From Epithemia pelagica (Eukaryota; Protista; Bacillariophyta): a stretch of DNA of 64,000 bases. The notes under the pieces are model-generated. The model worked only from the letters and a program-made list of their open reading frames with translations. It was not told the DNA's origin and ran no database searches. Numbering within the stretch: position 1 is the first letter of the stretch; the number at the start of each line of letters is the position of its first letter. Location of the stretch: positions 3,348,001 to 3,412,000 of the forward strand of contig OX337234.1 in NCBI GenBank assembly GCA_946965045.2. Direction: 5' to 3'. This document shows, piece after piece, positions 6,322 through 49,464 of this stretch. The position numbers and the translations under genes were made by a program.

Positions 6322-7001
6322 TAGCAAGCATGCATGTCTGAAGTCCTCCGCGACATCGAACACTTCTTTCTTTCTTACCATGAGTCATTGGTATGAATGG
6401 ATTCCATTGTGAAAATGACACTGGTCCCCAAACGCAAGGACGTGGTCTACCGGTAGCTAGGCGCAAAACAGAAACCCGTGGTCGTCACTGCTTGGTGGAC
6501 GTTCCCCGGAGAGAGCGTCAACGAGAACTTTTTTGGCAAATTCCAACATGGAACAAGATGGATCCGTCCTCCTTCATTGATCGAATATAGCTCGATGGTT
6601 ATCCGTCAGGAGAAAGGAGTCCTAGATTCCACGTTGAAGCCTCTACTCCTACAATACGATGCACGAACGATCACGGGACTGGATTACCCCCCAACGGAAC
6701 ACGAACTGAAGTATACGAACTCAGAAGAACTCCGCGATCCAATTTGGGCGATTGTATTCATTTACTATTGCCGTGCCATATTCAACGTCTTTCATTCATG
6801 TGCCGTGTGCAGTGCGCGCTCTGATATAACAGCCCCCTTTCCCCCAAAGGAACTTCTCCAAGTTTCGTCCTCCATTCGGAAGAAAGGCGTTCGCGTTCGC
6901 ATTTGCTGTGCATTTTTTGTGTTCGCTTTTTCTCGCTGTGCAATGAGGCCAGAACTGTTTCGGCTCATAAAACACAAACCAACAACAACACACTCACAAT
7001 C

Positions 7002-7926
7002 ATGAAGGTTATCGCAATCAACAAGGCTAGCGGCGTTTTGCTATTGGCGGTGGTGCTTTTGCTCCGAGGAACCAAGACCGGTGCTCGTTTGCTTCGTTCC
7101 TCAGGAGACGAGATCCATAACAACAATGACTCTATCGAAAGTCCCCCGCGTAGAATGATCACCAGCGAAACCTCCCCCGACGAAGAGCATGTAGACAGTA
7201 CTAACTCCTATGACCCCTACAACAACACCAACGGACAACAAAACAACACCGATCACCAACAAAACACTACCACGGTAATACCGACAGTCGTTTCCAGCGC
7301 CCCTTCGGTATGTGACCAACAGTATTGTGATCCCTGTCCTCCTCTTGGTACCTTCTCTCACTTTAATTCTTGATTTTGGCAACCCATAGTGTGGATGTCA
7401 GGGTCGACAAGATCCGGTGCCCTTTTATGTTCGTGGTGAGAACGATACCACCTTTCTCCAAGCACGTCTCATGGATCCTCCCAATATCATAGGGGCGACT
7501 TGCATGTTGGCCCGTGCTCCCGAGACAGATTACCAACGCATCCAAATGGCCAAAGCCTGTAAACATTCGGAAAAGTGTTGGATCGGCGCCATTGCCACTC
7601 AAGCCTATGGCAGCACCATGGTTTGCAATACCCAATACAGTGGCGCATTCAATCAAACGGAATGTGAGCGCGTTCGAAGTTTGTTTCGCAATTTGGGCCA
7701 TACCAACCTCCCGGACGTGAACCATGCTCCGATTCCCTTTGCCTTTTGGGCTAACAACGAGCCCAACAACTATCAGAGCAATGATCAATTTCGTCTGGTG
7801 ATATCTGCCTTTGTCTCACCAAACTCTGGTGGATTGTTGTTTGCGGAACATGGGGATGAGACAAACCGTCACAAGCCCTTGTTTCAATGCTGCAATGATG
7901 ATATCGAGGAAACTTGTCCCTTTTAG
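7002..7926 (+). CDS. Secreted Cys-rich protein with C-type-lectin-like domain (copy A), 2 exons, 280 aa
   Basis: Exons 7002-7307 and 7390-7926. Intron GTATGT...CATAG in phase 0, conserved in copy B. Signal-peptide-like N-terminus. Motifs CWIG, FWANNEPNN and FQCC. Confidence 0.75.
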
Positions 7927-9189
7927 AAAGAGGGGAGATCTACGATGAACAGACTGACCACCATGATGATGATGACACTTTTAGATGAATATTTTTTGGA
8001 GGGCGTTGCAGGATCTTTACTCATATTCTCCTGTAACAACCAAAAACATTTTTTGCAAGAAAAACAAAGACTTCGTTGTTCATTTAATTGTAGGACCAAA
8101 CTGTCTGTAAAGTGTGTGAGTGAAGAATCTGAGAATTTCTTCCAAGGTCTCTATCAAAGTTGTGTAAGTTGTGCGCATCTCAGGCAAACTATCTTATACC
8201 TTTGGGACTTGGGGGTATGACTTGGAACGCATTGTCAATAGCAGTGTCCATTTACATTCCATGCTTGCCAGAGCTGTGTGCCAGCAAGTCAATCTTCAGA
8301 TCGAGACTTGCGTTGTTGCAACGTCGAATTGACGGAAAGCCGTCCTTCTTGAATTCATCATCAAAAATATGTGCACCTTTTTGACATTTTCGTCCCAACG
8401 CCGGTGGACCCTATCTTAAAGGCTACAGTAGTGTTGCCGCTCTTCGAACCCAGTATTGCATAGCACTGTGTATGTTTCCGAGAAAGAGGGAGATCGCGAG
8501 TTGCGGTCGAACTTCTATTAAACCGCCTTGATACTATCAAGACCGGTCGATGCAACCAAAATAAATAAACCTTCTACATGAGTGCATTTCGGATGGTTCT
8601 GGCGCATGTAAACCCTGAAAACTGAAATAAACCCTGATTCTGCGCCCGCTGCAATATCGAGAGAATGGAGGTCTTTTTAAAAAATTAGGGTGAGTCGACC
8701 GACGCGCCCAACCCCAAAATCGGCAGAGGTACAGACTTTCCACGTGGAAGTCTTTGAGGCGCACGATTAACCACGGGACTTCACTACAACACCTCACGTA
8801 ACACAAACCTAACTACGAACCATGGAGAACTCACATTTTGCAGCGAGCAAGAGCATTCCCCCAAACAATGTCAGATTCGGAAGCAAAGAAAAATGTCAAC
8901 AGTCCACATCAAACCCTTCTCATAAACCACAAAACCGACCAACCAACTAACAACAAACACAACACAAAACCACAATAATGAAGGTTATCGCAATCTACAA
9001 GGCTAGCGGCGTTATGCTTTGTGCCATGGCACTTTTCGTTGGCGGAGCCAAGACCAGTGCGCGGTTGCTTCGTTCCTCAGCCGACGAGACCTACAACAAC
9101 AACGGCAATGACTCTATCGAAAGTCCCCCGCGTCGAGTGACCACCAATGAAACCTTCCCCGACGAAGGACAAGCAGACAGTGGTAACTC

Positions 9190-9276
9190 CTACAATCCCT
9201 ACAACAACACCAACGGACAACAAAACAATACCGTGTACAACCCCTACAACAACACCAACGGACAACAAAACAATAC
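9190..9276 (+). repeat. 45-bp tandem duplication in exon 1 of copy B (YNPYNNTNGQQNNT twice)
   Basis: The segment occurs once in copy A and twice in copy B. Confidence 0.85.
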
Positions 9277-9533
9277 TAATCACGAACAAAACACAACCAC
9301 AGACAAAGAACCGACAGTCGTTCCCAGCGCACCCTCGGTAGGTGACCAACAGTATTGTGAACCCAGTCCTCGTTTTCGATCCTTTTCTCACTTTTTTTCT
9401 TACTTGCTTTTGTTGTCTCCATATACAGTGTGGATGTCTGGGTCGACAAGATCCGGTGCCCTTTTATGTTCGTGGTTTGAATGATATCACCTTTCTGGAA
9501 GCTCGTCTCATGGATCCTCCCAACGTCACAGGA

Positions 9534-9538
9534 GCGAC
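9534..9538. repeat. Target site duplication GCGAC (left; right copy 19318-19322)
   Basis: GCGAC flanks both ends. Paralog A has a single GCGAC at 7495-7499. Confidence 0.93.
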
Positions 9539-10270
9539 ACTTAATGTAAACAGATATCTAGGTGTTGGTAAAGACACGTGTTAGATATAGGTGAGGTAGT
9601 CAATATAGCTCGGGTAGCCGACCTACTGCGGTGAAACGACGATGGGGCCCTCACCTTCGAATCAGCAACTAGGTCGACTCTCTTTCACAAACAGTTTGGT
9701 TACAAACTTTTGGTTTATAAAAAGAGTGAGCTTATTCTAAGATGAAAAGTGATTTTGGAGCAGGTTTGATCTCCTCGATCCTCTAGGTATGGAACTTGTT
9801 CTATTTGTTCCATAGAGCAGTTCTTTTTGTTCTGTGCACTAGTGGGAGATCTCACCTCTCCTATTGTATCTTGTTTTGGATCTTTACTCGATGGACTTAC
9901 CTTTGACACTCTTCAGGTGGCCGGATGGCCTGCCTGAGATCCATTTGTTTTCTCAATATTGAGAGGAAGATTCGGTATCCGGTGGCTCGCCCGACATGCA
10001 AATATATACGGCTGTATAGTGGGCTCGCGGTCTGGCAAGTTTTTATGTAAATAATATAGTAGGGCGTAAGTCACGTAAAGTTCCTTAGTTTTGGCAAGCA
10101 GCGCGATCAGTACTCTAAAGCAGCTGCTCGATGCGTTGAGGTTCAATTGACGTGCGTTGAGGTGCAACGCCTGCTTCTGATCGGCATGTGGCACGTCTGA
10201 CCGCACGTCACGCATATAGCTAGAGGAAATAGTCTAATGTCTAGAGAGTTGAGAGCGGTATTCTATAACT
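9539..10270 (-). repeat. 3' LTR (732 bp)
   Basis: Direct repeat of 18586-19317. Four substitutions found by eye (near 9604, 10026, 10096, 10224). Confidence 0.97.
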
Positions 10271-10279
10271 CTCCCTCTC
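10271..10279 (-). promoter_or_regulatory. Polypurine tract GAGAGGGAG
   Basis: Purine run immediately upstream of the 3' LTR on the element strand. Confidence 0.85.
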
Positions 10280-10322
10280 ATGGAGTGATTGATGGAGAAT
10301 CACGACGTGGTATGATGTCAGT

Positions 10323-13300
10323 TTACCAACCTTGATTTAATTTGCGGCAGCGCTCAAAGAGCTCTCGATTTTGGCACTTGGTGAGATAGTCTGCCTTTTG
10401 ATCATTGGTGCCTACCATACTGACCTTTACTCCTCCGGGATGATCACCGACATGTTCCCAGAAGAAATGTAGGTAAGTATTAAAATGTTTTGTCCGGGGT
10501 GTAAGGCGTTGCTTGGTAGCTAGGTGGAAGGCTCCACTGTTGTCTTCAAAGACTTCAGAGAATATAGTTGGCTTTTCAAATGGGAGTTCTAGGTTCTCTA
10601 GAAGCTCTTCAATGACTCGTCTTGTTGCAATAACACTACGCATTGCTTGAGATAAAGCATGATATTCCGCTTGAAGTGTGCTTAGAGCTACTGAAGATTG
10701 AAGTTGCGATCTCCAAATTAGAGGACATCCACAGAAGGTTAGGATGTATCCCGTTCGTGACTTGGCACTAACCGGGTTATCCTGTGGTTCACGACCATGG
10801 AGTCCCGCAAAATCAGCGTCTACATAACAATCTAGCTTGAAGTCTTTAGTTGGAGTGAAGATTGTACCTTTGTCCTTGGTTCTTGATAGATAACGAACAA
10901 TGGTCTTGATGGCTGTTGCATGTGACTTTTTAGGTGCTGAACTGAATCTAGCGACTTGACTAACTGCGAAGGCTATATCAGGTCTGGTATTCGTGGATAA
11001 ATAGAGTAGCATTCCGACTATGGAGCTATAATGCCAGCTTTCTTTCATGGGCTCACCATCGGGATCGCTGCCGAGACCTAGCTGAGTCGCTGGGGTCCAA
11101 TTCGGATTGCAGTCGTGTAGTCCCGTGGCATTTATTATCTTGGCAATTAACCCCTTCTGGGTCATAGTAATAGACTTATTCTCATTTTGAATAAAGTTGA
11201 TGCCCAAATAGTCGGTGAAATTGCCTTCTTTCTTGAGTGATAGGCCTTTCTTCTGTAGTCGTTCGATTAATTCATCAATAAGTTTCATATCAGGGGCACA
11301 AACGCCACAGTCGTCAACCCATAGAAAAATGATGATGTTGGACTTATAAAGAAGACATTCGTCATGCTTACTTGATTTGAAACCGTCTTCCTTAAGCGCT
11401 TGTACTAGATGGATATACCACAATCTAGGTGCAGAAGACAGGCCATATAGACTTTTGATGAGTCTTAGGCAGGTCGTTCCGGGTTTACTAGATCGAAATC
11501 CTCTAGGTAGATGGATCCATACAGGTTCATCTAAGGTAGCCTGTACAAATGCGTTGTTGAAATCGATACACGCAAGTTCCCAACCCAAGATTAAACTAAG
11601 GGTGAGCACAATACGGATAGTACTCCAGTGAACCACTGGACTATAGTTCTCTTGTTCCGTTTCTTGTAGGTCTCCTCTAACACAATATCGAGCCTTATGC
11701 TTGATAATATCTCCGTCTGGAGATCGCTTGCGTTTGAATACCCATGTCCCAGGTAAAATTCGTGTATTAGCCTGGGATTGAGGGACTTCTTCCCAAGTTC
11801 CTTTCTCCTCTAGTTTGGTTATTTCCTTGCTAGCTGCCGCTTTCCATTTCTCTATGTCTGTATCTCGCATAGCCTCATCGTAAGAGAGGGTGTCGGGATC
11901 AGAGAGAGAAGCTTTGTGAACTGTTAAAAGGTCACTAGGCTCATGAGATGGTGGCATTAGAGAAGGGAGGTTTGCTAGATTGCCTTCTTCAACTAAGCGG
12001 GTAGGTCGTTTAATAGTCCTAGCAGATCTCCTAGTTGGAAGGATCGTCGGTTGGACTGCACGTGGAGGCGGTCGCGGTGGTAATCTAGCTGGAGAAGGAG
12101 AAGGGTTGTGAAGAAGGGACTCCCTCTGAGACGGCGACTCCTGGGGTGACAGATGGGGAGAAGGCGAACGAGGGGTACTCGGAGCTGTAGATTCAACTCC
12201 TGATGATACGGACACCTGTCTTTGAGGTGTCTGGTTAGTTGTCTCCCTCTGAGGAGGTGACTCCAACGATGTGGTCAATGGAGTGGGAGTGGGATCCTCA
12301 CTGGGAGTTGGTAAAGAAGCGGAGAGTGGCACTGGGAGTGGACGTGTGTTAGGTGTAGATGATGACGTCAACGGAAGATATGGTTGGCGAGTAGCAATTT
12401 GTTGTGCGACATCTGATTGACGTCGAAGATACGTATTTTGGGTAGCTTCATCAATACTAGTAGGGGAGTCTAGATCGTCCGTTTCGGATGAATCATCAGT
12501 GATATATTGATATGCAGAATCTCCAAACAGGCGATACCAAGGTTCGGATGCAAAGTCCGGAAGCTGGTCGACAGACATGGCAATAGTGCTGAACCAATCG
12601 TCGAACACTACATGGAACTGGGGCGTAATATAGCCAGTTTGAGGATTTAAGACTAATGGAACAGTACTGGCATGTTGCGTACTTATCCCCTTAAGTTGGC
12701 AGCGAATAGATTTGGGCTTCCAGCGGGGTAGTTTCTTCCCGTCTGCAATAGTTTTGTGCAGAACATAGACTGGACAGCCCCACACGTGGAGATCATGAAA
12801 TTTTCGTTGTTCCCATCGGACACGTGTGAAAACATCATGGGGGCTTATACCAGTCTCAGTATTGGGTACATGGTTGTGTAAGAAAACGGCATGTGAAACG
12901 GCCATGGGCCAGAGCGCCGGATCGGCCAATTCTGGCCACTGTATGGCAGAGTGTAACATCATGGTGCGTGCAATCGACATAATTGTTTGTATTGCCCTTT
13001 CAGCTATTCCGGCATGATGATGTGCCCCGACTCCTGCGAACCGCGAAATTTGAGCAAAGTTCTCAAGCGATTGGGAGTAGGATTTTGAGGTGAAAGCAGC
13101 TCCGTTGTCCGTTAGGTATTTGAGAGGAACTACACCCACTTCTCTACAAAATAGCTCAAAGGATCCTTTAACACTAAGCGTTTCATGAGTGTTAAGGTGT
13201 GATTGAAATCCTATCCATGTATACCCCGAGGCGTGATCGACAAAGATCGCGCCGCCCACATAAAGGTTGTCAACTTTTGACTTCCCCCGAGAGTCAAATC

Positions 13301-14276
13301 TTCGTCCTTTTGTGGAGCACACAAAATGATCTACAGAGATGCATTGTCCAGGATGGAGGTTGCCATCTTTGGTGACTCCTCGTCGATCCTTGACAATGGT
13401 TGTTGTCGAACCGGGTTCGGTGCGACGACGTTGTTTCCCAAATTGGCATGCTGCGCATAATGGTAAGTCTTGCAAAAGAGATGCAGCTTGTGAGTGTAAG
13501 CGACGAGTCTTTTCTGTTGTTGCAAGGATACCAGTGCGCATCAAGAACTGTACCTTGCGAAAGTTAAGATGTCCAAGTCTGTAATGCCATTTGAGTAATT
13601 CCTTTTGAGGAGCGGTAAGATTTTCATTGTGTTGTGATACTTCGTTCACTGTTGTGTTGAGAGCTACCGAGCCAGTCATCATGTTCTGCTTGTCGTACCC
13701 AAACGACATGGGCAGATTGTTGCTGGGATTCACCATGACGGTGACTTCTCGGCGGGATTCATCTCCTGGAATACCGGTTAAGGTAAGTGTGTAACCGTCT
13801 TGAATTATTTTCTCACCGAAGTATGTTTGAAGTAACGATTGCGTCGACAAAAGTCTAACCGATGTTTTTGGTACTAAGAACGCAGGGAGTTTGAGCGATC
13901 GGGGCATACCATTGGTGTCCAGGATCGTCCAAACAACTGTTCCACGGGCAGTAGCTTTCATCCGGTTGGCGATGCCCTTTACTTGAAGACTTGGCAAAGA
14001 GCGAATCGGTCCCACAAAATCTTTCTCGTCGTTGGTAATGCAGACACTGGCCCCAGAGTCCCAGATAATTGGGTAAGAGGCGTGTGAAGGCATAGAAGAG
14101 CGAAGTTTCGATGGATCCTGGAGTGCTGCTCTCAAGGCTTGTTGGGTGATATGTTCCCAAGGATGATGGTTCAACTCGGTGGTTGAGTGGTGGCAACGTG
14201 GTGGTTCCTGCAAGAGCATGGCCATTCCCATGCATTTGTTCTGGTTGAGTGGCGATGCAGGGTAGAAGTTGGGTAC
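10323..14276 (-). CDS. pol: Pol polyprotein (protease, integrase, RT, RNase H), in frame with gag
   Basis: PR IIWDSGAS. IN HYRLGH...CAAC, with D-D-E in SVDHF / TDNG / IAER. RT IDFNNAF and LWVDD. RH YVDADFAG, EDNSG and ADYLTK. The frame is open from 14276 and the first ATG is at 14231. Confidence 0.95.
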   Translation of the reverse strand, partial: VPNFYPASPLNQNKCMGMAMLLQEPPRCHHSTTELNHHPWEHITQQALRAALQDPSKLRSSMPSHASYPIIWDSGASVCITNDEKDFVGPIRSLPSLQVKGIANRMKATARGTVVWTILDTNGMPRSLKLPAFLVPKTSVRLLSTQSLLQTYFGEKIIQDGYTLTLTGIPGDESRREVTVMVNPSNNLPMSFGYDKQNMMTGSVALNTTVNEVSQHNENLTAPQKELLKWHYRLGHLNFRKVQFLMRTGILATTEKTRRLHSQAASLLQDLPLCAACQFGKQRRRTEPGSTTTIVKDRRGVTKDGNLHPGQCISVDHFVCSTKGRRFDSRGKSKVDNLYVGGAIFVDHASGYTWIGFQSHLNTHETLSVKGSFELFCREVGVVPLKYLTDNGAAFTSKSYSQSLENFAQISRFAGVGAHHHAGIAERAIQTIMSIARTMMLHSAIQWPELADPALWPMAVSHAVFLHNHVPNTETGISPHDVFTRVRWEQRKFHDLHVWGCPVYVLHKTIADGKKLPRWKPKSIRCQLKGISTQHASTVPLVLNPQTGYITPQFHVVFDDWFSTIAMSVDQLPDFASEPWYRLFGDSAYQYITDDSSETDDLDSPTSIDEATQNTYLRRQSDVAQQIATRQPYLPLTSSSTPNTRPLPVPLSASLPTPSEDPTPTPLTTSLESPPQRETTNQTPQRQVSVSSGVESTAPSTPRSPSPHLSPQESPSQRESLLHNPSPSPARLPPRPPPRAVQPTILPTRRSARTIKRPTRLVEEGNLANLPSLMPPSHEPSDLLTVHKASLSDPDTLSYDEAMRDTDIEKWKAAASKEITKLEEKGTWEEVPQSQANTRILPGTWVFKRKRSPDGDIIKHKARYCVRGDLQETEQENYSPVVHWSTIRIVLTLSLILGWELACIDFNNAFVQATLDEPVWIHLPRGFRSSKPGTTCLRLIKSLYGLSSAPRLWYIHLVQALKEDGFKSSKHDECLLYKSNIIIFLWVDDCGVCAPDMKLIDELIERLQKKGLSLKKEGNFTDYLGINFIQNENKSITMTQKGLIAKIINATGLHDCNPNWTPATQLGLGSDPDGEPMKESWHYSSIVGMLLYLSTNTRPDIAFAVSQVARFSSAPKKSHATAIKTIVRYLSRTKDKGTIFTPTKDFKLDCYVDADFAGLHGREPQDNPVSAKSRTGYILTFCGCPLIWRSQLQSSVALSTLQAEYHALSQAMRSVIATRRVIEELLENLELPFEKPTIFSEVFEDNSGAFHLATKQRLTPRTKHFNTYLHFFWEHVGDHPGGVKVSMVGTNDQKADYLTKCQNRELFERCRKLNQGW

Positions 14277-17200
14277 TTAAGGAAACGGTACGTTGCTTAA
14301 ATTGCAGCAAAAGTTGCTGCTGTTTCTAGTATTCGATCTCTGACGGGTGTTGCCTGTCAGGTTGATAGTTGGTTCGGCGGAGGTCGACGGCTGGAAGCAA
14401 GAGGTGCTGCGCCGGTTTTTGCAGCGGTGACTCGTCGGCATCCTGCGGCGGTTGGTCGGTGGTGTGGAGGTCATGGCGCTCGGCGGTCGGTTGGGTACAC
14501 GGCGGCGCTTGCGGTTGTGCCGGCTTGATCCGGAGTAAACGTGCCTGTTGTTCGTCGTGTTCCTGTTTCTCCCTCGCAGCGGAGTGACATGGCCTCGGAA
14601 ACCCAGAGGGCCACCCGTCTCGGTGGATGCTGACAATCCCAACAATCTGCAAACCAACACAACAATCAACCTCAAAGCGGAGAAACAAAATCCAACAATC
14701 AAACTTGGAGGTGGAAGAGATCGTGGCTTTGAGTGGAGTGGATTGCGGGTGTGGATGCGAGCGAGTCGGTACTTGAATCGGTTGACATGGTAGTTGGGGT
14801 GGTGTCCGAACCATGGTGAGTCAGGATAGCGAGAAGAAACGCGCCAAATGACCACCAAAACAACAATCCAACATGAGAGCCAAGTGATGATGGCAGGCAT
14901 GAAGGATGGATGAGTCACGTATGAGAGCAGTAAGAACCATAGACCTGTATATAAGTCGTAGATTCCTGTTAGAAAATGACTTAGACCGATGTAAATTGTA
15001 GTCTTTCCTTCATTGTAATAGGTGTCAGCTCCCGTAGAGGGTGAGGCGGTAGGGTAGAGCCACTGGATCACAGGTAGGACAAGGACAAGGTGGGCGAGTG
15101 CAACTAAGAAAAGGTGCAGCCACGCAGAAGTTTCTGCCGTAGGTACCTCGTCCGACTCGCGCGCCAGCCGATCATCAAAATCGCGACGGACCGGCGAAGG
15201 GGTCACGTGTCCAAACCTGAATGGGGTGTAGTGGACTTCTACGCATTTCCCTACCAGAGAATCCTCATCAGATGATACTGTTTCTTCCATAGTGTCAATT
15301 GGGACGTTTTGTCGGTCCTGGGGACCTCCCTCCGATTCATTATTCTTGATCCAGAAATTTTGGGTCTCATTTTTAGAACAATCGTCGACCCATGCCATGT
15401 TGGCAAAGTATTTGGTGAGCGGCACAGTTTTTGCTGAGTCGCCACCACTGCTTGCTGTGTCTGCATCGGTAGGTACGTACTTCTCCCCAAGAGTGTTGTT
15501 GGGTGTAAACGAAGTAGAAGACAAACTGTCCGCACTACTCTCACGATGTGTTCGGAGTTGTGCTGATGCAGGTGTAAAGCGATGGCTAATGGACGACGTG
15601 TCCATCGGTTGAATATTGAAGCAAGGCATCATCGGTCCAGGAGGAATGGGGGACATGCCTGGAAAAGAGTGTTCCGGTCGAGGGTGATTTGGGATCAAAG
15701 TCCCATCGACGTAGTATCCCATTGCCCATTCTTCTTCCTTGACACGCTGATATGCTTCAGCGACGGTAAGTTTTGGTTCACGCCATGCATTGGCAAAGAC
15801 TGTTTTTGCTGCACGTTCGTATCTCATTCCATCACGTTTTGCCTGTTCTGCTTCGAGAACGAATTGTTCAGACGGGTAACGAGCGATTGGCTGCTGCATG
15901 GTGAGTTTTCGTCGCGGAGGCAGTTGCGGTGGAGGAGACGGAGCTTGGTGTGCCAGCGCAAAGGGTGCTGATGGCCGTGGCGGAAGCGGTGGCTGTGGAA
16001 GAATTGGTGAGATGGCAGGGAGTTTCTTTTCAAGGCTAGGTGGTCGTCCCTGCTGCAGCATTTTGAGAGGGGCATTCATATCATCGACGGACAGATCCAT
16101 GCTGGCTTCTTGCGTACGGTAAGTGTCATTATTTGCCATGCTGGTGTCTTTTGTGTCTTGATCCATGCTTTCATAGCTCTCATTGACTGCTGCTGCTGCC
16201 TGGATTTCTTTGTCGTACAAACCTTCGAGGAAACGTTGGGTTTCCAAATCGGAGAATTTGACAGCTTCAGAATCGAGGGCAGACAGAGATGGTCCCAGTT
16301 CCTCCCACTTGTTGAAATACTTTGGCTCGTTTCCAAAGTCAGGTTCAATGGGAGTTGAGGTAGGTTCCGTGGTATTGATTGTGCTTGTTGTGTTGCAAGA
16401 AGAAGAGTCTTGCATGTCGCTTGTGGTTGTCTCACTGTCTTGTTCTTCTTGTTCCAATGCTGCTGAGGTAATGCGATCAGGCGTTACCAGGTTCAAGGTA
16501 TTGGATGAGAAGAGGGACGAGGAGGTTGATGACCCATCGTCCATTTCTTCTTCGGTGTCAACGGTTTGGGTCAAATTGACCACAAGATTGTACGCACAAA
16601 GGTCGTACTCGTCGTCCGTCTCGGAGCAATCCACATCAGTTTTAGCGTCGTCCATGTTGGGAGGACACTTCACACAAACACAATTTGCTTCAAAATCGTC
16701 GTGGTCGAAGAGCCAAGAGTGCTCTTTGTTGACCATTTCGTAAGTATTCGCATCATCAAGGCCGTTTTTCTCGATGTATGCTGCCCATGCTGCCGGTTCC
16801 ATTTCTAACTTGTTTGCTTGATGCTGTTTGGAACTCGACTTGTTGGATTTGAAACCAACAATATGCTCACTGGTTTTGTGAGTTGGATTCCAGTTGGTGC
16901 ATTTTCCGCACCAGTACATGGGCTTTCCGTCCACCATCCGCATTTCTGGTTCCCCTTCTTTGGGAGGGATGCGGCGCCAGTTGTTATCGCTGGAAGAGGT
17001 ACGTTTCGTGAAGTTGTTGTTGTTTTTGTTTTTGTTGTTGTTCTTCCCCTTCTCACGAACGTATGTCTTCTTGTTCCCGGGTGTGTTCATTTGCTGAACA
17101 AGAGCGTTGGCTTGAATGGACTTGGTCTGTTTTCCTTTCTTGGAAACTGTGGCATTGTTAGCACCATACGATGTTGGTGGTGCCTTGGAATCCCGGTGAG

Positions 17201-18167
17201 TGCTCTTTGCGCTCCATTCCCCGCGCTTTACACTAACCCAATATTTGCTGTTTGCCTCTTCGATCACGTGCGTATAGAGCAGCTTGTTTGTGGTCATGTA
17301 TTGATCCGCTGCTGCACGGTCGAGAAACCGAATGTGATCGACACTGTCCTGGACAGACTTGTTCAGGAGCAGGAGAGAAAACTTCGGAGTCGGCGGCCAT
17401 TCTGCTTTCAAAATGTTTGTGAGCAGGCTCGCCGTGAGGGTGTGGTCGTAAAGACCAGCGGCGGTAAGAGATCGGGCCTTTGCGGCGAAATCGGTGGTAA
17501 GTGCAGTGATGTCATGGCCGGCGTAGTTGTGCGGGTCCAATGAACGCATCTCACTTTTTACGATTTCCCAATGTTCGATTGAGTCGTCCGTAATAATGCG
17601 GACGATGATCATGAACAGCTCCGGAAAGGATGCAACGTCGCGGGATTGGTCCTCCACTTCCCGTCGAAATGTCTTATCCAATGAGTCAAGTAAGTAGTCT
17701 TGCGCCGCGGCATCGTTGTTGGCGTCATACTTATCATACTTGCTCACCTGTTGTTTCATTGCTTCGTGAACCTTTGTGTGAGTGAACCGTGGGTGTTCGG
17801 TAACGATGTTGAGCATGGAGGACTTACTGAGTGGATCGAGTAAGTACATAATCGTATCCATGCCATGTTTCGTGAAATGGCGGACTAATTCATCTTGGAG
17901 TCTTGAAAAATCGCCTTTCTTCTTATCGAACTTTTCTACAGGGCCAGTCACCCGATCAAGGTACCGCTTGTCGGTAAAGGTACGTAGCTGGAGACTGCGG
18001 ACTGGATGGTCCTTGGCTTTGTCGTCTAACCCTTTCCAATCTGGTTTGGGTTTACCGCCAGTCCAGGGGACGTACGTGTCCTTGCTGGATTGAACGAGGC
18101 CGCCCATTCTGGGACGGTCGGGCATAAAGACATCAGTGTCTTGTTGGGGAGAGTCTTCACCTGACAT
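14277..18167 (-). CDS. gag: Gag with long C-terminal extension including hydrophobic segments, 1296 aa
   Basis: Gag-like N-terminal ~460 aa ending in the Zn-knuckle variant WCGKCTNWNPTHKTSEH. It is followed by acidic, Ser/Thr-rich and Pro-rich tracts, hydrophobic segments and an Arg-rich tail. Confidence 0.85.
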   Translation of the reverse strand: MSGEDSPQQDTDVFMPDRPRMGGLVQSSKDTYVPWTGGKPKPDWKGLDDKAKDHPVRSLQLRTFTDKRYLDRVTGPVEKFDKKKGDFSRLQDELVRHFTKHGMDTIMYLLDPLSKSSMLNIVTEHPRFTHTKVHEAMKQQVSKYDKYDANNDAAAQDYLLDSLDKTFRREVEDQSRDVASFPELFMIIVRIITDDSIEHWEIVKSEMRSLDPHNYAGHDITALTTDFAAKARSLTAAGLYDHTLTASLLTNILKAEWPPTPKFSLLLLNKSVQDSVDHIRFLDRAAADQYMTTNKLLYTHVIEEANSKYWVSVKRGEWSAKSTHRDSKAPPTSYGANNATVSKKGKQTKSIQANALVQQMNTPGNKKTYVREKGKNNNKNKNNNNFTKRTSSSDNNWRRIPPKEGEPEMRMVDGKPMYWCGKCTNWNPTHKTSEHIVGFKSNKSSSKQHQANKLEMEPAAWAAYIEKNGLDDANTYEMVNKEHSWLFDHDDFEANCVCVKCPPNMDDAKTDVDCSETDDEYDLCAYNLVVNLTQTVDTEEEMDDGSSTSSSLFSSNTLNLVTPDRITSAALEQEEQDSETTTSDMQDSSSCNTTSTINTTEPTSTPIEPDFGNEPKYFNKWEELGPSLSALDSEAVKFSDLETQRFLEGLYDKEIQAAAAVNESYESMDQDTKDTSMANNDTYRTQEASMDLSVDDMNAPLKMLQQGRPPSLEKKLPAISPILPQPPLPPRPSAPFALAHQAPSPPPQLPPRRKLTMQQPIARYPSEQFVLEAEQAKRDGMRYERAAKTVFANAWREPKLTVAEAYQRVKEEEWAMGYYVDGTLIPNHPRPEHSFPGMSPIPPGPMMPCFNIQPMDTSSISHRFTPASAQLRTHRESSADSLSSTSFTPNNTLGEKYVPTDADTASSGGDSAKTVPLTKYFANMAWVDDCSKNETQNFWIKNNESEGGPQDRQNVPIDTMEETVSSDEDSLVGKCVEVHYTPFRFGHVTPSPVRRDFDDRLARESDEVPTAETSAWLHLFLVALAHLVLVLPVIQWLYPTASPSTGADTYYNEGKTTIYIGLSHFLTGIYDLYTGLWFLLLSYVTHPSFMPAIITWLSCWIVVLVVIWRVSSRYPDSPWFGHHPNYHVNRFKYRLARIHTRNPLHSKPRSLPPPSLIVGFCFSALRLIVVLVCRLLGLSASTETGGPLGFRGHVTPLRGRNRNTTNNRHVYSGSSRHNRKRRRVPNRPPSAMTSTPPTNRRRMPTSHRCKNRRSTSCFQPSTSAEPTINLTGNTRQRSNTRNSSNFCCNLSNVPFP

Positions 18168-18573
18168 GGTGTTGGAAGCAACAATCAGCCGCTTTTGGGA
18201 AGAACGAGACGCGTCGGTTTGCTGAGCAGAGCCAGGGAGAGGTGCGGTCTGTTGCTGGGGTTCTTGCTGGATGTCTGCAAGATCAGGTGGTACACTGAGT
18301 GGAGGCTCAGTGGGGTCAGTCCGATTCAGGTCAGGAGTAGTGTCAGACTCGTCGACACTCTCTGCTGTTACGAGTTCGAAACTGCCAGCGCCACTAGAGG
18401 TAGGAGAGTCTTGGTCTTCCTCCGTTGTGGCTACGGGGTGGATGCCTTGCTAGGGATGTCCACTCCTTGCGCGCGTATAGATGCCGTAGTAAGAGGTGAA
18501 CCTTATAGAGTTCTCCCTCTTGGTAATATAATAGTCGATCGATCAGGAAACGTCTGGTTTACCAGCCTTATTT

Positions 18574-18585
18574 GGGCTCATAACC
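18574..18585 (-). promoter_or_regulatory. Primer binding site GGTTATGAGCCC, complementary to the anticodon arm of initiator tRNA-Met
   Basis: Directly abuts the 5' LTR. The plus strand reads GGGCTCATAACC, containing the CAT anticodon. Same type as the Ty5 and Drosophila copia half-tRNA PBS. Confidence 0.88.
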
Positions 18586-19317
18586 ACTTAATGTAAACAG
18601 ATATCTAGGTGTTGGTAAAGACACGTGTTAGATATAGGTGAGGTAGTCAAAATAGCTCGGGTAGCCGACCTACTGCGGTGAAACGACGATGGGGCCCTCA
18701 CCTTCGAATCAGCAACTAGGTCGACTCTCTTTCACAAACAGTTTGGTTACAAACTTTTGGTTTATAAAAAGAGTGAGCTTATTCTAAGATGAAAAGTGAT
18801 TTTGGAGCAGGTTTGATCTCCTCGATCCTCTAGGTATGGAACTTGTTCTATTTGTTCCATAGAGCAGTTCTTTTTGTTCTGTGCACTAGTGGGAGATCTC
18901 ACCTCTCCTATTGTATCTTGTTTTGGATCTTTACTCGATGGACTTACCTTTGACACTCTTCAGGTGGCCGGATGGCCTGCCTGAGATCCATTTGTTTTCT
19001 CAATATTGAGAGGAAGATTCGGTATCCGGTGGCTCGCCCGACATGCAAATATATACGGCTGTATAGTGGGCTTGCGGTCTGGCAAGTTTTTATGTAAATA
19101 ATATAGTAGGGCGTAAGTCACGTAAAGTTCCTTAGTTTTGGCGAGCAGCGCGATCAGTACTCTAAAGCAGCTGCTCGATGCGTTGAGGTTCAATTGACGT
19201 GCGTTGAGGTGCAACGCCTGCTTCTGATCGGCATGTGGCACGTCTGACCGCACGTCACGCATATAGCTAGCGGAAATAGTCTAATGTCTAGAGAGTTGAG
19301 AGCGGTATTCTATAACT
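18586..19317 (-). repeat. 5' LTR (732 bp)
   Basis: Direct repeat of 9539-10270. Immediately followed on the minus strand by the PBS. Confidence 0.97.
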
Positions 19318-19322
19318 GCGAC
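19318..19322. repeat. Target site duplication GCGAC (right)
   Basis: Matches 9534-9538. Confidence 0.93.
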
Positions 19323-20400
19323 TTGTATGTTGGCTCGTGCTCCCGAGACAGATTACCAACGCATCCAAATGGCCAAAGCCTGTAAACATTCGGAAAAGTG
19401 TTGGATCGGCGCCGTTGCCACTCAAGCCTATGGCAGCACCATGGTTTGCAATACCCAATACAGTGGCGCATTCAATCAAACGGAATGTGAGCGCGTTCGA
19501 AGTTTGTTTCGCAGTTTGGGCCATACCTACCTCCCGGACGTGAACCATGCTCCGATTCCCTTTGCCTTTTGGGCCAACAACGAGCCAAACAATTACCAGA
19601 ACAATGATGACTTTCGCCTGGTTATATCTGCCTTTGTCTCACCAAACTTTGGTGGATTGTTGTTTGCGGAACATGGGGATGAGACAAACCGTCACAAGCC
19701 CTTGTTTCAATGCTGCAATGATGATATTGAGGAAAGTTGTCCGTTTTAGAAACAAACAGGGGAAAGAAACAATGACCACCACAACAGCCCTTTGGATGAG
19801 TTTGGTTCTGTAGTGTTCATAACCATTTCGAACGTTTTCATAAACATCTGTTGATCATTTTCTTCTTGTTGTCCAATTCGGTCAAAGTCTCGGCATCCCA
19901 ATACTCCATCTACGGTACAGACGCCGTGTTCGCTTCCTATAACAGCGAGCCCTCAACGTCACTCACAACTACCCGTTGTAGAGGGCGGATCGCCTGCTCA
20001 TTCCCGGAATCCAATTCCTTGGTTCCTTACCAGTCCAATTTGCCGCAACAGAAAGGAGGTGTGTTGGTCGAATTCAGGATTCTCCATTGTTGGATGCCTC
20101 CGCATACCGTTTCGACGTCACCAACAGCAAAACAACTCAAGTTTGTCAAGCCTTTGAGACGAGAGAGGACGCCAATATAACAAATAGGGTATCTATGGTA
20201 TTGTGCAATTCGGTCGTTTCATGCAACAAGGAGGAGGAGGACGACTAGATGATCAAAGAATCACGGCGATTCCGGAGAACAAAACAGAAAAAAGTTGGTG
20301 GCGGAGACGACAAAAATCCACAAACATTGACGTTCCAAAAAAGTCTTGCCACGACAACGACGACGACGACGACGACGACAACGAACAAGTTTGGATACCG

Positions 20401-20418: not shown

Positions 20419-23400
20419 AGAACTGATGGACAAACTCATGATCTGTGCCAACCAAGAAAGTGACATTCTGTACTGACCAGAAGAGCCGAGTTTGTTCATG
20501 GGTCGTTGTGTGGCTGGTGGCCTTCCCCATTTCATGGCTCATTATGGTTCATCTGTGGATTTTGGATTTGTCTCGGAACTCGGAAGCACCGGTTGTCCTC
20601 CGGTCGCATTTGTATGGGCTATAATCTTTGATGGGGAGTAGTGAGTAGTGTAAATTATGGGCTTAGCACTTAGCAACTCACTTACCACAGAACACAGAAC
20701 ATTCGCCATTAATTCCCCTCCATATTGGTGAGGCGGCCAGACATATCCCCAACCCTATCTTTTTTTAATATCGCCCGCCACTGCTCCAGGTAGCTCTAAG
20801 TATCTCTAATTGCCAACACCGTTTCATACAGGTCGGCTTGCGTCCAGTGGTTTCTGAATGCTCATAAATTTGGGCAACCCTCTTGTTCTCGTCTGTCACA
20901 AAACCCAAAACCGAGGCAAATGCTTGACCATGACGTGAGGCAAGAACCATGGACGGATCATGCTGGGCTGAATTGCATTTAACTTCTCACTACTGCTGCT
21001 TGTTTCAAATCTTGTCGTCTCCTTTTGTTAGGATTCTCACCGAAAACTAGGTGGCGAAACCTACAACTCATCGAATGATGCTAGTATTTTATGGCATCCG
21101 ATGACATTTTCCTAAAAGTGAGAAAAGAATGTCGGCATGCTCGCGAAACTATAAATTTGGCCACGGCATGCTCGCAGTGCACGCGTTATCGGCGACCGCT
21201 CGGATATTAACTATGGCCCAACACGTGCGCGCCCAAAACTATCAAGTGCGCGCCTCTACTATCCGAGTACGCGCATCCACGATTCGACCTAACGGTCTAT
21301 GTAATCAAAGCACGAATCACGATCACGCGAGACCATATCTCTGTTCCCACAAATCCAAGAATGCAAACAGCAACGCGCCCAGGACAAGACTTATACCACG
21401 ACAAAGCAAGAGCTGTTGCATCCCATACGTGTTATCCATCACCCTATACATTCAATATACACCAATGCCGGTCTACTCCAACCAGTGAGGACCTATCACA
21501 CCAGATCCATGGCCGTATACAAGAGCCAGGACTTCGGCACCATCAACCACCTTAGTTAGTAATCGTCTCACAATCATTAATATCACCATTTTAACACTCA
21601 TCTTAAGACTAACCTCTTATCAGTGGACCGACTGCCCCCACCCACGGCGGACTTCGACTTGCAACTCTTCTCTGACCCGTGGAGGATTGTTGTATCGGTT
21701 GGTGATTCGATTGTCGGCTCAGCGAGCCTTTTACCTATCCTACCTATCTGTCTAACCCCTGTTGAATCGAGAGAAGTTTATCACCTTTTCTTTCTTCTTA
21801 CTCATCACTGCTGCAATCCTTCCTTTTGTTCTTGCATGATCCTTTGGATTTGTCTCATGTTGTACGAGTAGACTGGGTATAAGCTGCTTGTGGTCAAGTG
21901 GAATATCCTTCCCTTTCCCCTTCTTGTAATTCTTTTGTCGTTTGATTGTTGGCTGGTTGGTTACTTTCATGTTTCCTGTAGGATAGATGATTCACTATTC
22001 ATAGTATCATTGTCAATCATTTCTCAACGACCGCAAATTTTGTTGTTTTTGCTTCAAGTAGATGGATGGCTCCATCTTGCTCTTGCCACTTGCCACACCC
22101 TACTTTCCAATTATCAGCTCCTAGAGCTAGAGTCAAACAGCGAATGATTCAATTTGTAGCTGTACAAGCGTGTAAGAGCTGCTCTGTCGTGTGTTCATGG
22201 TGAAACTGAGGGTCATTGACGTGCTCAAAACAGAAAACTGATGTACTACACGAATACAGAAGGCACTAAACTCTATGGATGGCTAGCACTTGAGTTCTAT
22301 TTCTAGTTAATAAAGAAAAGGAGGTCTATAGTCTGTGGATAAATGCAATGGAAGTTATGGGTATCATTTCGACAGAAATGAACAATGGCAAGTAATGAGC
22401 TGCTGAGCCAGAGACACAGCAGATGAGCAGACTCTCGTCCCATGAGCAGAGCAAGCAAAAGTGACAAGTGTGAGTGAGCATGAGCAATGTAATTGTCATG
22501 GCAATCCTCAATGGATCAAGCTCACCTGGAATGTCATTGATACGATGTGCTTTGGCAAGAGAAAAGGATTGTGTGCTTGTCCGGTATTATGAATTATGAA
22601 ACAACCAATCGTCATCCACGCAGGGCCGCTTGCTGGCAGTTGGAGAGCTGGCAAAGCCACCCCATTCGAGAGCAAGCTTTCCCTAGCACGTGTCCACGAA
22701 ACGCGACCGAGTTTGGTCTGGCCGCCTCACCAATATGGAGGGGAAATAATGGCGAATGAAAACAGAAGAGACCTAACCCGTTATTGTAACATTCGGAACG
22801 CGATCATTGATCATGTATGAAATCAGTCACGATGGGACATTTGTAAACTACAGCCCGCATCTGGATCAATGCATTCTCCTTGCTACACCGGAATAGACCG
22901 ACCTGACTGTACGAAGGATTTGGTACTTTTTCGCCTATTGTGGGAGTGCTCGCTCTTCCGGAGAACAAACGCCCCATGCAGGAATTTCGATGCGCGATCG
23001 GCGTGTTCTGCTGTCTTGTCTGTGTCTCTCTTGTCCGGTGAAAGTCTAAGGCAATACAGAAAAAATCAACGGTAACATCCTTCACGACAATCTCATTGAT
23101 TTTCCAAAGAAAATAAAGCATTTCTCAACGAGCACCTCCGTTGTGCCCAGATTCGTTTCGATACAGACAGGCGAAAGAAGAGTAACGAAAAAGAGGAGAG
23201 GACGAACGATAAGGGGGACGACAAGAAGAAGAGGAGGACGAGGACGAGAAGAAGAAGATTCGGGGGAGAGGGAGGAGACGAGGACAACGACTTGGCACTT
23301 TTGGCGTATCTTTGTGTTGAGGCAACCTGAACGGTGCTTAAATTCTTGACTTGTTTGTTGCTAGATAGTTTTGGACATTCTTGCCTGTTCCTGTTCCTCA

Positions 23401-23498: not shown

Positions 23499-26400
23499 AT
23501 GGAGGACCAAAGTGTTTCGTCGTCCACATTTATAGACAGTCTTTCGGATTTGGGCTTTTCGGGAGCGTTGGACGATGATACCGAAACAGAATATCCAGAA
23601 CAAGAAGAAGAAGAAGACACGAGGAACAACAGCCCCAACAACCAGAACGATGGCGATCCAAACACTCACAAACCAGATGAGAATGACGACGACAATGGAT
23701 CGGTCGATAGTATGGAGGACCGTCAAGAACAAACAGAGGAGGCCAAAAAGAGGGCACGGTCTCGACACTTGTGGGGTGTCTTGGCGCCCACCACCATGGC
23801 CTTGGGGACCATGTTGACCAAGGTCAGTCACGACAATGGACTCGTCGATGAAGACGATGTGATTGCAGCCGCCGTCCTGCTCAAGGAATCCACGACCTCG
23901 ACCGTGACATCGACCACCACGACTGGCGCGGCAGGAGGCAATGCCACGGCAGCCACTACCACGGCAACCTCGGCTCAGTAAGTACCGACGAGGAGAACGT
24001 AGCATCGAACGAGTTGTGGTTGTTGTTGTGTGTTTGTCTCATGCACATTTGTTTACGGTACAACTACATAATTTGTTTGGACTCTCTCTCGTGTTTAGAA
24101 TGCAAGCAGCACTTCAACAAATGGCCGTGGCGGCCGCCAACAATGCAGCCGGTTCCGCTGCCACTGGTACGTATCGGCAGGAAGGTGCCTTGCCTTGGAA
24201 ATCAATGTATACACAGTCATTGCTCTCATGGCCTAGGTTTGTTGTTTCATCTTGAGAACAGCCAGTACGGCCTCTTCGGCCGCAGCGGCGGCCGCTGCTG
24301 CGACTACTACAACTACCGTTGCCACCAGTACGGCCGTTCCCGTGACGGCGACGGCAACTGTTGTGGCGGCAGCGGCCGTGGCGGGCAATTATTTATGGGT
24401 CGAACCGTCCCTGGCAACCTATTATTGTCCCAATGTGACGAATCCGATTGAAAAACGAGCGACCATGACGTTGAATTTTATCCGCAACCAGGAGCAAGAG
24501 GATACGAGTCTCGTCCAGTTTCAACCCTTGACCTTGGATCAAGGAGCTCAATTGGAAACAGTGTTTAACGACACGTACAATGATTTGTTGGGATTTTGTG
24601 GCAAACCGTTGGATCGTGTCATTACCAATGTCTCGGTGGACTGTGACGATGACCAAGGGTCTTGTTGTTCCGTTCTGGAACAGACACTGTTGTACGGGGA
24701 CGTTTTGCAATGCAATTTGACCGCCTTTTTCTGGTGCGATGGATGTGAAGGATTGTTTGATGGATTAGTAGAAGGATTGGACGACGAGGAACATGAAGGC
24801 TTGGTCGGAGCCACCCTGGTGGGGGACGAGACCAACAATAACGTGCAACCCAGCAGCGGCACCACGGCGACTACGACTAGTACTACGGCTACGGTGGACG
24901 CTTTGTCGACCGGAATCACCCCGGCAGAACCCATGGAGTACTCGGTTCCAACCACAACTAGTAGTACGACGGCGGCTGCGTTGGAATCCTTGGAATACTA
25001 CGACAGCACACTGCCAATGACAACAACGGCGGAGGGAGACGAGGACCCACAAACAACAAATGCCAATGTATTTTCGTTCCATGACAAGTCCTCGGACCAG
25101 GAAGTCAACCATGATCCTTCTGGAACTGTCCTTCCACCAGAAGCAATCACTAATCCATCAAAGTCCACTTCAGCATCATCATCAGCAGCATCGCTGGTTT
25201 CCACCAAGACCGGAATAGGGGACGACCCAGACGAAGTGAGCAATGTCTTTTCGTCGTCCTTTCCTTTTCAACCATCGGAACCGGAAACATACAATGTTGC
25301 TAGTTTTTCGTTTACAAGAGAATCTTCATTGTCGGGGGACTCTGTCGACGATCCAATGAGTCAGGGATCCACCAATGGGGAAGTCGTAATGTTGGTTGGT
25401 ATCTCGGGAATGACGGTCGTGGATGGTGCGGCGATTCCCATTTATCCTACACGGAATTTCCGTCTCGTGGAGAATCCTCTCAAGGCTGGAAAAGCCTCCC
25501 GGACTGAGTCCGTCTCCGATGCCAATGTGTTTGGTAAGCATGAGGGTGAGCCGTTTTCTTCTGAGACGGGGAACTATAACGCCAATGCCAATATGTTTGG
25601 CAAGCATGACGAGGGTATGACGTTTTCTTTTGAGACGGGCAACGACAGGTACAGACGTCGAGCTTTGAACGAATTACCCGAAAATTGCTCTGAAGAGTCG
25701 TCCTCTGGCTTTTGGACGTGTTTGCAGACAGCTACTTGTGCCGAAATTGGGCTTTGTGTCACTATAGCTCGAGTTGATGCCCTTTACGAATTTGAACGGA
25801 TGCTAACGCCCATCACAAATGCAAATGCGGGAGATGAGGACGTGGTCATTGAACCCACTGAGAAAGACGATGCCAACACAGATTTCCTGGAAGCAGAACC
25901 CTTTACCGAACCAGTTTCTGAAACGATTACATTGGTTCCACCGATTACGTTGGCTCCAACAGTATCTGTAGCACCGAGCCTCCAGTCTTCTTTCCTGCCA
26001 TCGCTGTCGCCTAGCATGGCGCCATCGGGCTCACCATCAGAGGGTCCCACTTCTGTCCCAAGCACAACGCCATCACAATCACCCTCCCTCTCTCCTAGCA
26101 GCCAGCCAAGCTTTGTTCCGAGCGAAACTCCCTCAGAACGACCGTCGCTGTCTCTAACCGAAACACCAAGTTCTGCCCCCTCTTCCATTCCAACAGCGAT
26201 GCCCTCTTCAAAGCCTTCGGACAAACCCTCTGTTTCTCCAAGTTTCGTTCCGACCGATATGCCTTCTGTTATGCCATCCGTTGAACCGTCGAATGAGCCA
26301 TCGCTGTTGCCGTCGTCATTGCCGACGGCCGGTCCGAGTAAATCGCCGTCCGACATTCCAAGCTCAAGTCCTTCGAGTTTACCTTCGACTTCTCCGGTTG

Positions 26401-49158: not shown

Positions 49159-49220
49159 TTTCAATCCTATGATCAGTGTGAATGCGCGGCCCAGAATAGT
49201 ATGGACTTGATCACTTGTAC

Positions 49221-49310
49221 GTTCTTCTCCCTGTTCTGTTTTGGAGTGTTTGTTTGCCACGTTCCATCCCCAGGCGCTTTTTCCTACGAGAACCATAATA
49301 CATACGCGTA
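49221..49310 (-). repeat. ~90-bp inverted repeat, right arm
   Basis: Pairs with 48015-48104. Confidence 0.85.
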
Positions 49311-49464
49311 AGAAACCCTCTCAACGAACAGTCATGACATTAGTTTGAAATTATTAGAGTACCTCTCGTTACACTGGAATGATACGATGGGTAATAGATA
49401 CGGTGAAGCCGACATAAATCATACTACTCTTGACCGCGCATTAACGCATATCGTAGGATTGAAA

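Follow-up and report, generated by a model that had tools for sequence, protein, structure and literature searches.

Why does a Ty1/copia retrotransposon begin with AG and end with GT, when TG...CA is typical of this superfamily, with known exceptions? The element that raises this question occupies the minus strand at 9539-19317 (9779 bp) of the window, i.e., the whole 64,000-nucleotide stretch of DNA analyzed here. We consider it probable that this is a young copy, broken by a nonsense codon, of a multi-copy Ty1/copia family within a clade with A..T ends (consensus AGT...ACT), in which each end attaches to the host DNA through a T, likely by an adapted integrase. The relevant features are as follows.

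7390..7926, plus strand: uninterrupted paralogous host exon with the empty site (GCGAC at 7495-7499)
9534..9538, plus strand: target-site duplication GCGAC, left
9539..10270, minus strand: 3' LTR, 732 bp, with 4 differences from the 5' LTR; the break point of other insertions is 9539
10271..10279, minus strand: polypurine tract (PPT) GAGAGGGAG, adjoining the 3' LTR
10323..14276, minus strand: pol, in copia order (protease, GAG-pre-integrase, rve integrase, SH3-like, RVT_2, RNase H region)
14277..14279, minus strand: in-frame TAA splitting gag-pol in the window copy (CAA in the X1-X3 contigs, Q in P0075)
14280..18167, minus strand: gag-like frame containing a Cys/His knuckle-like motif; 1296 aa when read from the first Met
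18574..18585, minus strand: primer-binding site (PBS) GGTTATGAGCCC, adjoining the 5' LTR, putatively of the half-tRNA (initiator Met anticodon arm) type
18586..19317, minus strand: 5' LTR, 732 bp, starting AGTTATAG and ending CATTAAGT
19318..19322, plus strand: target-site duplication GCGAC, right; junction found in run X3

The boundaries and the GCGAC duplication had been described in an earlier note on this DNA, and they are borne out by the homology between the LTRs (9538-10270 versus 18585-19317, with the 4 mismatches at 9604, 10026, 10096, and 10224), by a PBS and a PPT that adjoin the LTRs, and by a single GCGAC in the paralogous host gene, which aligns to both flanks. The insertion lies in a coding exon of the second tandem host copy (about 9427-9538 and 19318-19750), and the 5-bp length of the duplication is established at this one insertion. 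On the element strand, AGTTATAG opens both LTRs and CATTAAGT closes both, with termini AGTTA...TAAGT. The Ty1/copia hallmarks of two direct LTRs, a PBS, a PPT, and a target duplication within 4-6 bp are all present; TG...CA is absent, and AG...GT stands in its place. With AGT...AGT termini, each end meets the host DNA through a 3'-T, as the earlier note had stated.

The base C9538/C18585 is ambiguous inside the window copy, 4-bp duplications are found in some CoDi families (PMC8147415, in its available part), and the junctions are known from assembled contigs rather than raw reads. These points favor a one-off mutation, an assembly error, or a mis-set boundary with a 4-bp duplication and an AAGTG end, the last of which the earlier note had kept as an alternative. 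Independent junctions speak against all of these. A contig from run X4 (a biofilm metagenome from another study) leaves the LTR exactly before 9539 into another flank, which ends in T; in run X3, two contigs make the same exit and a contig starts exactly at 9539. Runs X1 and X3 list no alternative letters for the LTR ends, and the window copy's own 5' junction (10270, then the GCGAC flank) was found in X3. The three further junctions at 9539, from two studies, are without that C and thus rule out the AAGTG end. With further insertions and a whole clade sharing the end type (see below), the copy is no one-off either; the non-canonical AG...GT termini are real, and explanations by error or accident are largely refuted and scarcely credible. 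In addition, depth in runs X1 and X2 was about 580-690 for the element and 120-230 for host pieces, a rough sign of several copies.

The element had also been called intact, which it is not, as the TAA breaks the frame between gag and protease, where the contigs of runs X1-X3 have CAA and P0075, a near-identical protein, has Q. An autonomous element would have an uninterrupted gag-pol; that of the window copy is interrupted, and other sampled copies read through. Programmed read-through at the TAA was rejected on account of the CAA in those copies. Because rare variants are dropped from contigs, the TAA may be either a private mutation or a consensus error of the window. The window copy is 21 nt shorter than the X1-X3 contigs at 12141, in frame, within the integrase-RT spacer, and the run contigs carry GGTTGCTGAGCCC at the PBS instead of GGTTATGAGCCC. 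The gag-like frame, which was without a Pfam match, includes a long additional region with three hydrophobic segments, for which an atlas search gave no usable match.

In pol, matches to Pol_BBD (71-150; weak, E 0.096), gag_pre-integrs (211-282), rve (308-407), and RVT_2 (828-1063, E 2e-41) accompany the Ty1/copia order of protease, integrase, RVT_2-type RT, and RNase H. The integrase catalytic residues are D316, D390, and E426 (pol numbering), with a spacing of 36. A structure model (pLDDT 82), whose top Foldseek matches are RSV, MMTV, and PFV intasome chains (E about 2e-7), identifies the predicted protein as a DDE enzyme of the retroviral fold. A single-sequence search of the PDB with the integrase returned chance matches only, and a profile search matched retroviral and Ty integrases weakly (E 0.1-0.6), leaving the D-35-E register loosely fixed.

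The host of the element is likely a diatom. Every organism-named close homologue among the 120 matches listed is from Fragilaria crotonensis, and the window carries a DUF1800-DUF1501 frame, which we take to be typical of diatoms. No named CoDi reference sequence appeared among the 120 matches listed, in either of two homologue listings, and the second listing offered no outgroup with which to root the trees. According to the available parts of the two main sources, to which the comparison is limited, the diatom Ty1/copia elements known as CoDi (Maumus 2009, PMC2806351; Filloramo 2021, PMC8147415) share with the element the PR-IN-RT-RH order, young LTR pairs, a 5-bp duplication, and at most one stop separating gag from pol, and their LTRs of 153-844 bp encompass its 732 bp. 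In contrast, the element is longer than CoDi (5182-8062 bp), and whereas the reported CoDi ends (TGCA, TATA, TGTA, TACA, TGAG, TGAT, TGGA, and TTCG; PMC8147415) are all T-first, the element is A-first and T-last.

Whether the ends are a trait of the family was assessed in 82 metagenome loci with a pol match, several of them near-copies. The PPT and PBS were chosen by motif; one of two PPT-like matches was picked in 7 loci, and additional PBS-like matches were set aside in 5. The bases following the PPT were AGT in 32 loci, AAT in 4, and TG in 8 (38 unreadable), and those ahead of the PBS were ACT in 20, ATT in 4, AGT in 4, and CA in 3 (51 unreadable). Both ends could be read in 27 loci, of which 24 were A..T, 3 were TG..CA, and none was mixed. 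The claim of a family-wide trait therefore holds more broadly than it was made, with a whole integrase clade showing A..T ends (24/24 readable). Most of the A..T group is AGT...ACT; the AG..GT form of the window is in the minority (4/28 loci whose PBS-side end is A-n-T). In L006, L014, and L049, LTR-LTR homology stops exactly at ACT and host flank follows. With the window included, positions 1 and 3 pair in 25/25 cases and position 2 in 18/25; compared with TGT...ACA relatives, the flip is confined to the outermost pair, position 3 (T/A) never varies, and position 2 is relaxed. The three TG..CA loci are distant relatives with the same PBS/PPT register as the A..T loci, and the identical 9-mer PPT GAGAGGGAG stands directly ahead of TG in TG..CA relatives. 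We rejected the terminal T as part of the PBS, given that TG..CA relatives carry A at that position; the central bases of the PBS differ widely among relatives. Viral contigs yielded no relatives, and two pattern matches there, without a pol match, are unrelated.

In an integrase tree of 31 A..T and 7 TG..CA rows (5 near-copies removed), end type changes once (SH-aLRT 98; shuffled mean 6.6). The RT tree needs two changes, with L054 among the TG..CA rows, and one origin is not rejected (p-AU 0.395). Both trees are unrooted, so that the direction from TG..CA to A..T rests on the near-universality of TG..CA. Seven of the 339 alignment columns separate the two groups. Three picks from the sequence comparison, around the end-binding loop and helix, are candidate protein-side determinants: H421 (versus Q in TG..CA relatives, and Q in 4/35 A..T rows), M433 (versus V/T; the HIV K159 position as counted from the catalytic Glu), and F318 (versus Y). 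Given a single transition, any clade marker would co-segregate with end type. In the available part of PMC3185514, HIV Q148, Y143, and K159 cross-link to terminal bases. N422A of the window was rejected as the cause of its GT end, since L036, L043, L051, and L054 end in AGT with N.

How would such ends be made and joined? GGTTATGAGCCC presumably matches tRNA-iMet, and we assume the tRNA register in which the PBS starts at the first G; no host tRNA was found within the window. A half-tRNA primer and the PPT would adjoin the LTRs, which implies blunt cDNA from reverse transcription without 3' processing, like Ty1, and at each end the integrase would attach the 3'-T to the target without trimming, the two joining sites being staggered by 5 bp. 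Hemiviruses (copia, Ty5, Osser, and 1731; PMC1181622, in part) have a half-tRNA-type PBS directly adjoining the LTR, a type that the PBS motif of the element would fit, and their half-tRNA priming begins at nucleotide 40. Alternatively, a shorter primer or a shifted PPT cut could make the cDNA longer than the integrated element, with the integrase trimming after T at a changed cut site. The AGT/AnT errantiviruses are discussed as processing enzymes, with the details described there as unclear (PMC3601003, PMC5408687); however, relatives of both end types, TG..CA and A..T, share one register in which the PBS and PPT adjoin the LTR, and with a PBS that begins at the first G, priming from nucleotide 40 leaves nothing extra to trim. 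We regard trimming as very improbable.

We infer from the sequences that the end specificity of the integrase is probably altered. The earlier note had said as much, and in doing so overstated the case. At a blunt end, Ty1 integrase reportedly asks for no more than an A:T pair, on either strand (work cited in PMC8487063, itself seen in part), such that the ends might flip with hardly any change in the protein, or none. Blunt-cDNA copia enzymes might thus be permissive, the outer pair having drifted in two steps and been inherited with specificity unchanged. Plant copia elements with TG..CT, TG..GT, and TG..TT ends indicate, in the sources available, that a 3'-T can be joined, and the catalytic-helix residues differ only modestly between the groups. 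Yet the two ends are separate LTR positions and 0/27 loci are mixed, the A..T state is kept across integrases only about 45-65% identical, and Ty1, which performs no end processing, has CA as its minimal requirement at physiological metal (PMC8487063, same part). Drift under a permissive enzyme is therefore unlikely in our judgment, and we retain altered specificity as the likely reading.

Non-canonical ends have precedents, all taken here from the available parts of the sources. The insect Ty3/gypsy errantiviruses (Zam clade) have termini AGTTAYRK...TAAYT, or AGT/AnT with n usually A or C (PMC3601003, PMC5408687), almost the same as AGTTA...TAAGT, and AGT/AnT also occurs in the element's clade. 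This close precedent makes the earlier wording that joined ends are almost always CA too strong. Errantiviruses belong to another superfamily, with RT-RH-IN order, often env, and a palindromic target preference, whereas in the element integrase precedes RT and the gypsy order is absent; the copia domain order and RT family suggest that the likeness is convergent. Plant non-TGCA copia, like the element, includes a joined 3'-T (TGCT, TGGT, TGTT) or a first A (AACA) (LTR_retriever preprint 10.1101/137141, PMC9804982, PMC5659011); two plant copia surveys call the first T invariable. These have one end or inner positions changed, are mostly non-palindromic, and are scattered over the tree; in the element's clade, unlike these, both outermost bases are swapped together and still paired across a deep clade.

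AGT/AnT ends in insect errantiviruses and non-TG/CA ends in plant and diatom copia are already known. An A..T copia clade was found neither in the literature searched nor in Tables S10 and S11 of Filloramo 2021 (model diatoms), and papers on AG..CT-type strings among the matches listed were all unrelated by title. In their available parts, a Symbiodinium copia paper (PMC5776459) states no termini, an introner paper (PMC12130899) has nothing on such ends, and a 2025 diatom TE preprint does not mention "canonical" or "motif." The fuller proposal is that a deep, widespread, undescribed diatom copia lineage re-tuned its integrase once to 3'-T ends (AGT...AnT), convergent with the errantivirus code and largely invisible to TG..CA-bound annotation, with specificity set by residues 421, 433, and 318; we advance it tentatively, as slightly easier to doubt than to accept.

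Few features of LTR elements and retroviruses are as strongly conserved as the terminal CA. Sister copia groups that share their PBS and PPT but differ by a flipped terminal pair offer a natural test of how integrase reads its ends, and the same test bears on whether errantiviruses and A..T copia reached one solution via the same residues. The earlier note was right that finders bound to a TG..CA motif would miss the family; pipelines that require TG..CA or a few T-first motifs would count too few of the young full-length elements of diatom genomes.

Comparison of the two LTRs revealed that positions 9538-10270 are homologous to 18585-19317 with 4 mismatches, and GCGAC stands on both sides of the element (9534-9538 and 19318-19322). 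A duplication of 5 bp places the element as follows:

9539-19317 (9779 bp), minus strand: Ty1/copia LTR-retrotransposon

The LTRs are then 732 bp long and 0.55% divergent, the ends are AGTTATAG...CATTAAGT, and the primer-binding site (PBS) and polypurine tract (PPT) directly adjoin the LTRs without a spacer. An empty site lies at 7495-7499 in the host gene's tandem paralog, which matches both flanks. The earlier note had fixed the boundaries by these same features, and we confirm them, except that the paralog alone has no power over 5 versus 4 bp, because the empty site is identical under either reading. The tandem pair consists of small host genes (6988-7926, and 8964-9538 plus 19318-19750); the retrotransposon sits within the second copy's coding exon and breaks it, and the frame of that copy is otherwise open.

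All or part of the stretch was found in six public runs (three of organism A from one study, and three biofilm metagenomes from another), with contigs as the evidence in all six. In X4, a biofilm metagenome from a different study than run X3, a contig departs from the LTR exactly before 9539 and continues into 214 letters of unrelated sequence, the last of them T, and X3 contains two further loose ends before 9539 plus one contig starting at 9539. Since insertions elsewhere break before 9539, the element's 3' end is AAGT, with no further G, which rules out the alternative that the note had allowed, i.e., a 4-bp duplication with an AAGTG end. X3 also contains the 5' junction of the window's copy, and no other 5' junction occurs among the run rows listed; a 32-letter record in run X1 fits to 10271, one base further, and is uninterpretable. 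In addition, element contigs in X1 and X2 have depths of ~580-690 versus 120-230 for host pieces, a rough sign that the element is present in several copies.

Using an alignment of 26 pol proteins as the query, we retrieved 84 loci, 78 from metagenomes and 6 from a genome collection; 82 of the 84 have a pol match. Two PPT-like matches were present in 7 loci, where one was chosen, and extra PBS-like matches in 5 loci were left aside. The bases after the PPT (44 loci) were AGT in 32, AAT in 4, and TG in 8, and those before the PBS (31 loci) were ACT in 20, ATT in 4, AGT in 4, and CA in 3. Both ends were readable in 27 loci, and in this sample, which includes several near-copies and comes from a survey with 78/84 loci from metagenomes, 24 have A..T ends, 3 have TG..CA ends, and none is mixed. 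The non-canonical ends are no one-off. The TG..CA loci share PPT and PBS with the A..T loci, in one common register, which provides an internal control for the boundaries. In three related loci (L006, L014, and L049), LTR-LTR homology ends at ACT, with host DNA beyond. With the window included (n = 25), the two ends pair at positions 1 and 3 in all 25, at position 2 in 18, at position 4 in 20, and at position 5 in 16.

Quick, unrooted tree searches placed one change of end type on the integrase tree (66 rows, support 94), and again when 5 near-copies and the unlabelled rows were removed (31 versus 7 rows, support 98, shuffled mean 6.6). The RT tree needs two changes because one A..T-ended locus, L054, lies among TG..CA rows; a single origin is not rejected on that tree (p-AU 0.395). 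L054 (1-6403) has its integrase among A..T rows and its RT among TG..CA rows, and is possibly a recombinant or a basal lineage.

Contrary to the note, the window's copy is not intact. The frame at 10323-18449 is interrupted once, by a TAA at 14277-14279 that lies upstream of the protease; contigs of X1-X3 have CAA there, and P0075, a near-identical protein, has Q. Compared with run contigs, the copy also lacks 21 nt of the IN-RT spacer. Pfam confirmed the copia domain order, the integrase structure model (pLDDT 82) resembles retroviral intasome chains, and the organism-named homologues among the 120 matches listed are all Fragilaria crotonensis proteins, which makes a diatom host likely. After the gag knuckle and before the protease lie ~900 additional residues (about 14280-16550, minus strand) that match nothing in Pfam or the atlas and finish with three predicted membrane segments; hydrophobic segments occur in the corresponding region of 4 of the 6 homologues that could be parsed. 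The PBS, which we take to match the initiator tRNA, reads GGTTATGAGCCC at 18574-18585 in the window's copy versus GGTTGCTGAGCCC in run contigs and in related loci L037 and L076. In relatives its central bases are highly variable, with GGT(T/C) and GCCCAA kept, and the window's PBS may have been overwritten via copying of the tRNA primer.

Elsewhere in the window, a 2059-bp element (20700-22758) with 43-nt terminal inverted repeats (98%) and a flanking 9-bp near-duplication, AACACAGAA / AAAACAGAA, has no frame of 150 aa and presumably resembles a non-autonomous Mutator-type element. An inverted duplication of ~900 bp (48367-50274, 79-92% alike) holds a convergent pair of frames (313 and 329 aa), neither of which matches Pfam. 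The two large frames at 24237-28910 and 30143-34348 are convergent too; both have PT repeats, and one of them has a legume-lectin-like domain. A single 1225-aa frame with DUF1800 and DUF1501 lies at 60090-63767.

Integration of the A..T ends into host DNA produced a 5-bp duplication, and relative to TGT...ACA relatives the outermost pair alone is flipped. Half-tRNA priming, described in part of PMC1181622 as beginning at nucleotide 40, would together with the adjoining PPT yield blunt cDNA. According to passages of PMC8487063, Ty1 cDNA ends need no 3' processing; if the element's cDNA is joined in the same way, its integrase would join a 3'-T at each end. The chief alternative is a permissive integrase for which an A:T pair at the end is enough, and the same passages report Ty1 specificity as just such a requirement. 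Given that the ends are separate positions and that we encountered no mixed element, the flip is most likely due to selection, exerted by the integrase, for T at both ends, and we consider it probable that the integrase is adapted to T ends. Seven of 339 integrase columns separate A..T from TG..CA rows, including F318 (Y in 8/8 TG rows) and M433 (M in 34/35 A..T rows; TG rows have V or T). Enrichment is seen for H421 (28/35 A..T rows, versus Q in 8/8 TG rows). At pol 422 (about 13011-13013, minus strand), which precedes the catalytic helix, the window's family and the homologous proteins P0001 and P0002 have Ala, and all 42 remaining labelled rows have the conserved Asn. By spacing from the catalytic Glu, in a loose register, 433 would correspond to HIV K159 and 422 to HIV Q148; both HIV residues cross-link to terminal bases (PMC3185514, in part). 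With a single transition, all these residues remain candidates.

In the portions of the CoDi literature covered, 23 of 26 families have TG/CA (Maumus 2009, PMC2806351), and the three exceptional ones have TATA, TGTA, TACA, or TTCG (Filloramo 2021, PMC8147415). Tables S10 and S11 of the latter contain no motif starting with A, and a search of a third table for AG-type motifs gave none. In several CoDi5 rows of Table S11, one of the two duplication copies has additional 'tat' or 'ata' letters, and these elements may extend past the annotated TG..CA boundary. Among non-TGCA plant copia, the first T is invariant in sections of two surveys (10.1101/137141; PMC9804982), with AACA as one exception in a section of PMC5659011. 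In the literature outside subscription journals and Repbase reports, we came across no account of a copia clade with A..T ends. Insect errantiviruses, per excerpts of PMC3601003 and PMC5408687, have ends (AGTTA...TAAYT) that are nearly those of the window's element, but they belong to the gypsy superfamily; judged by their letters, the two kinds of ends are convergent. We regard the flipped terminal base pair, shared across this clade of diatom-type copia elements, as real.
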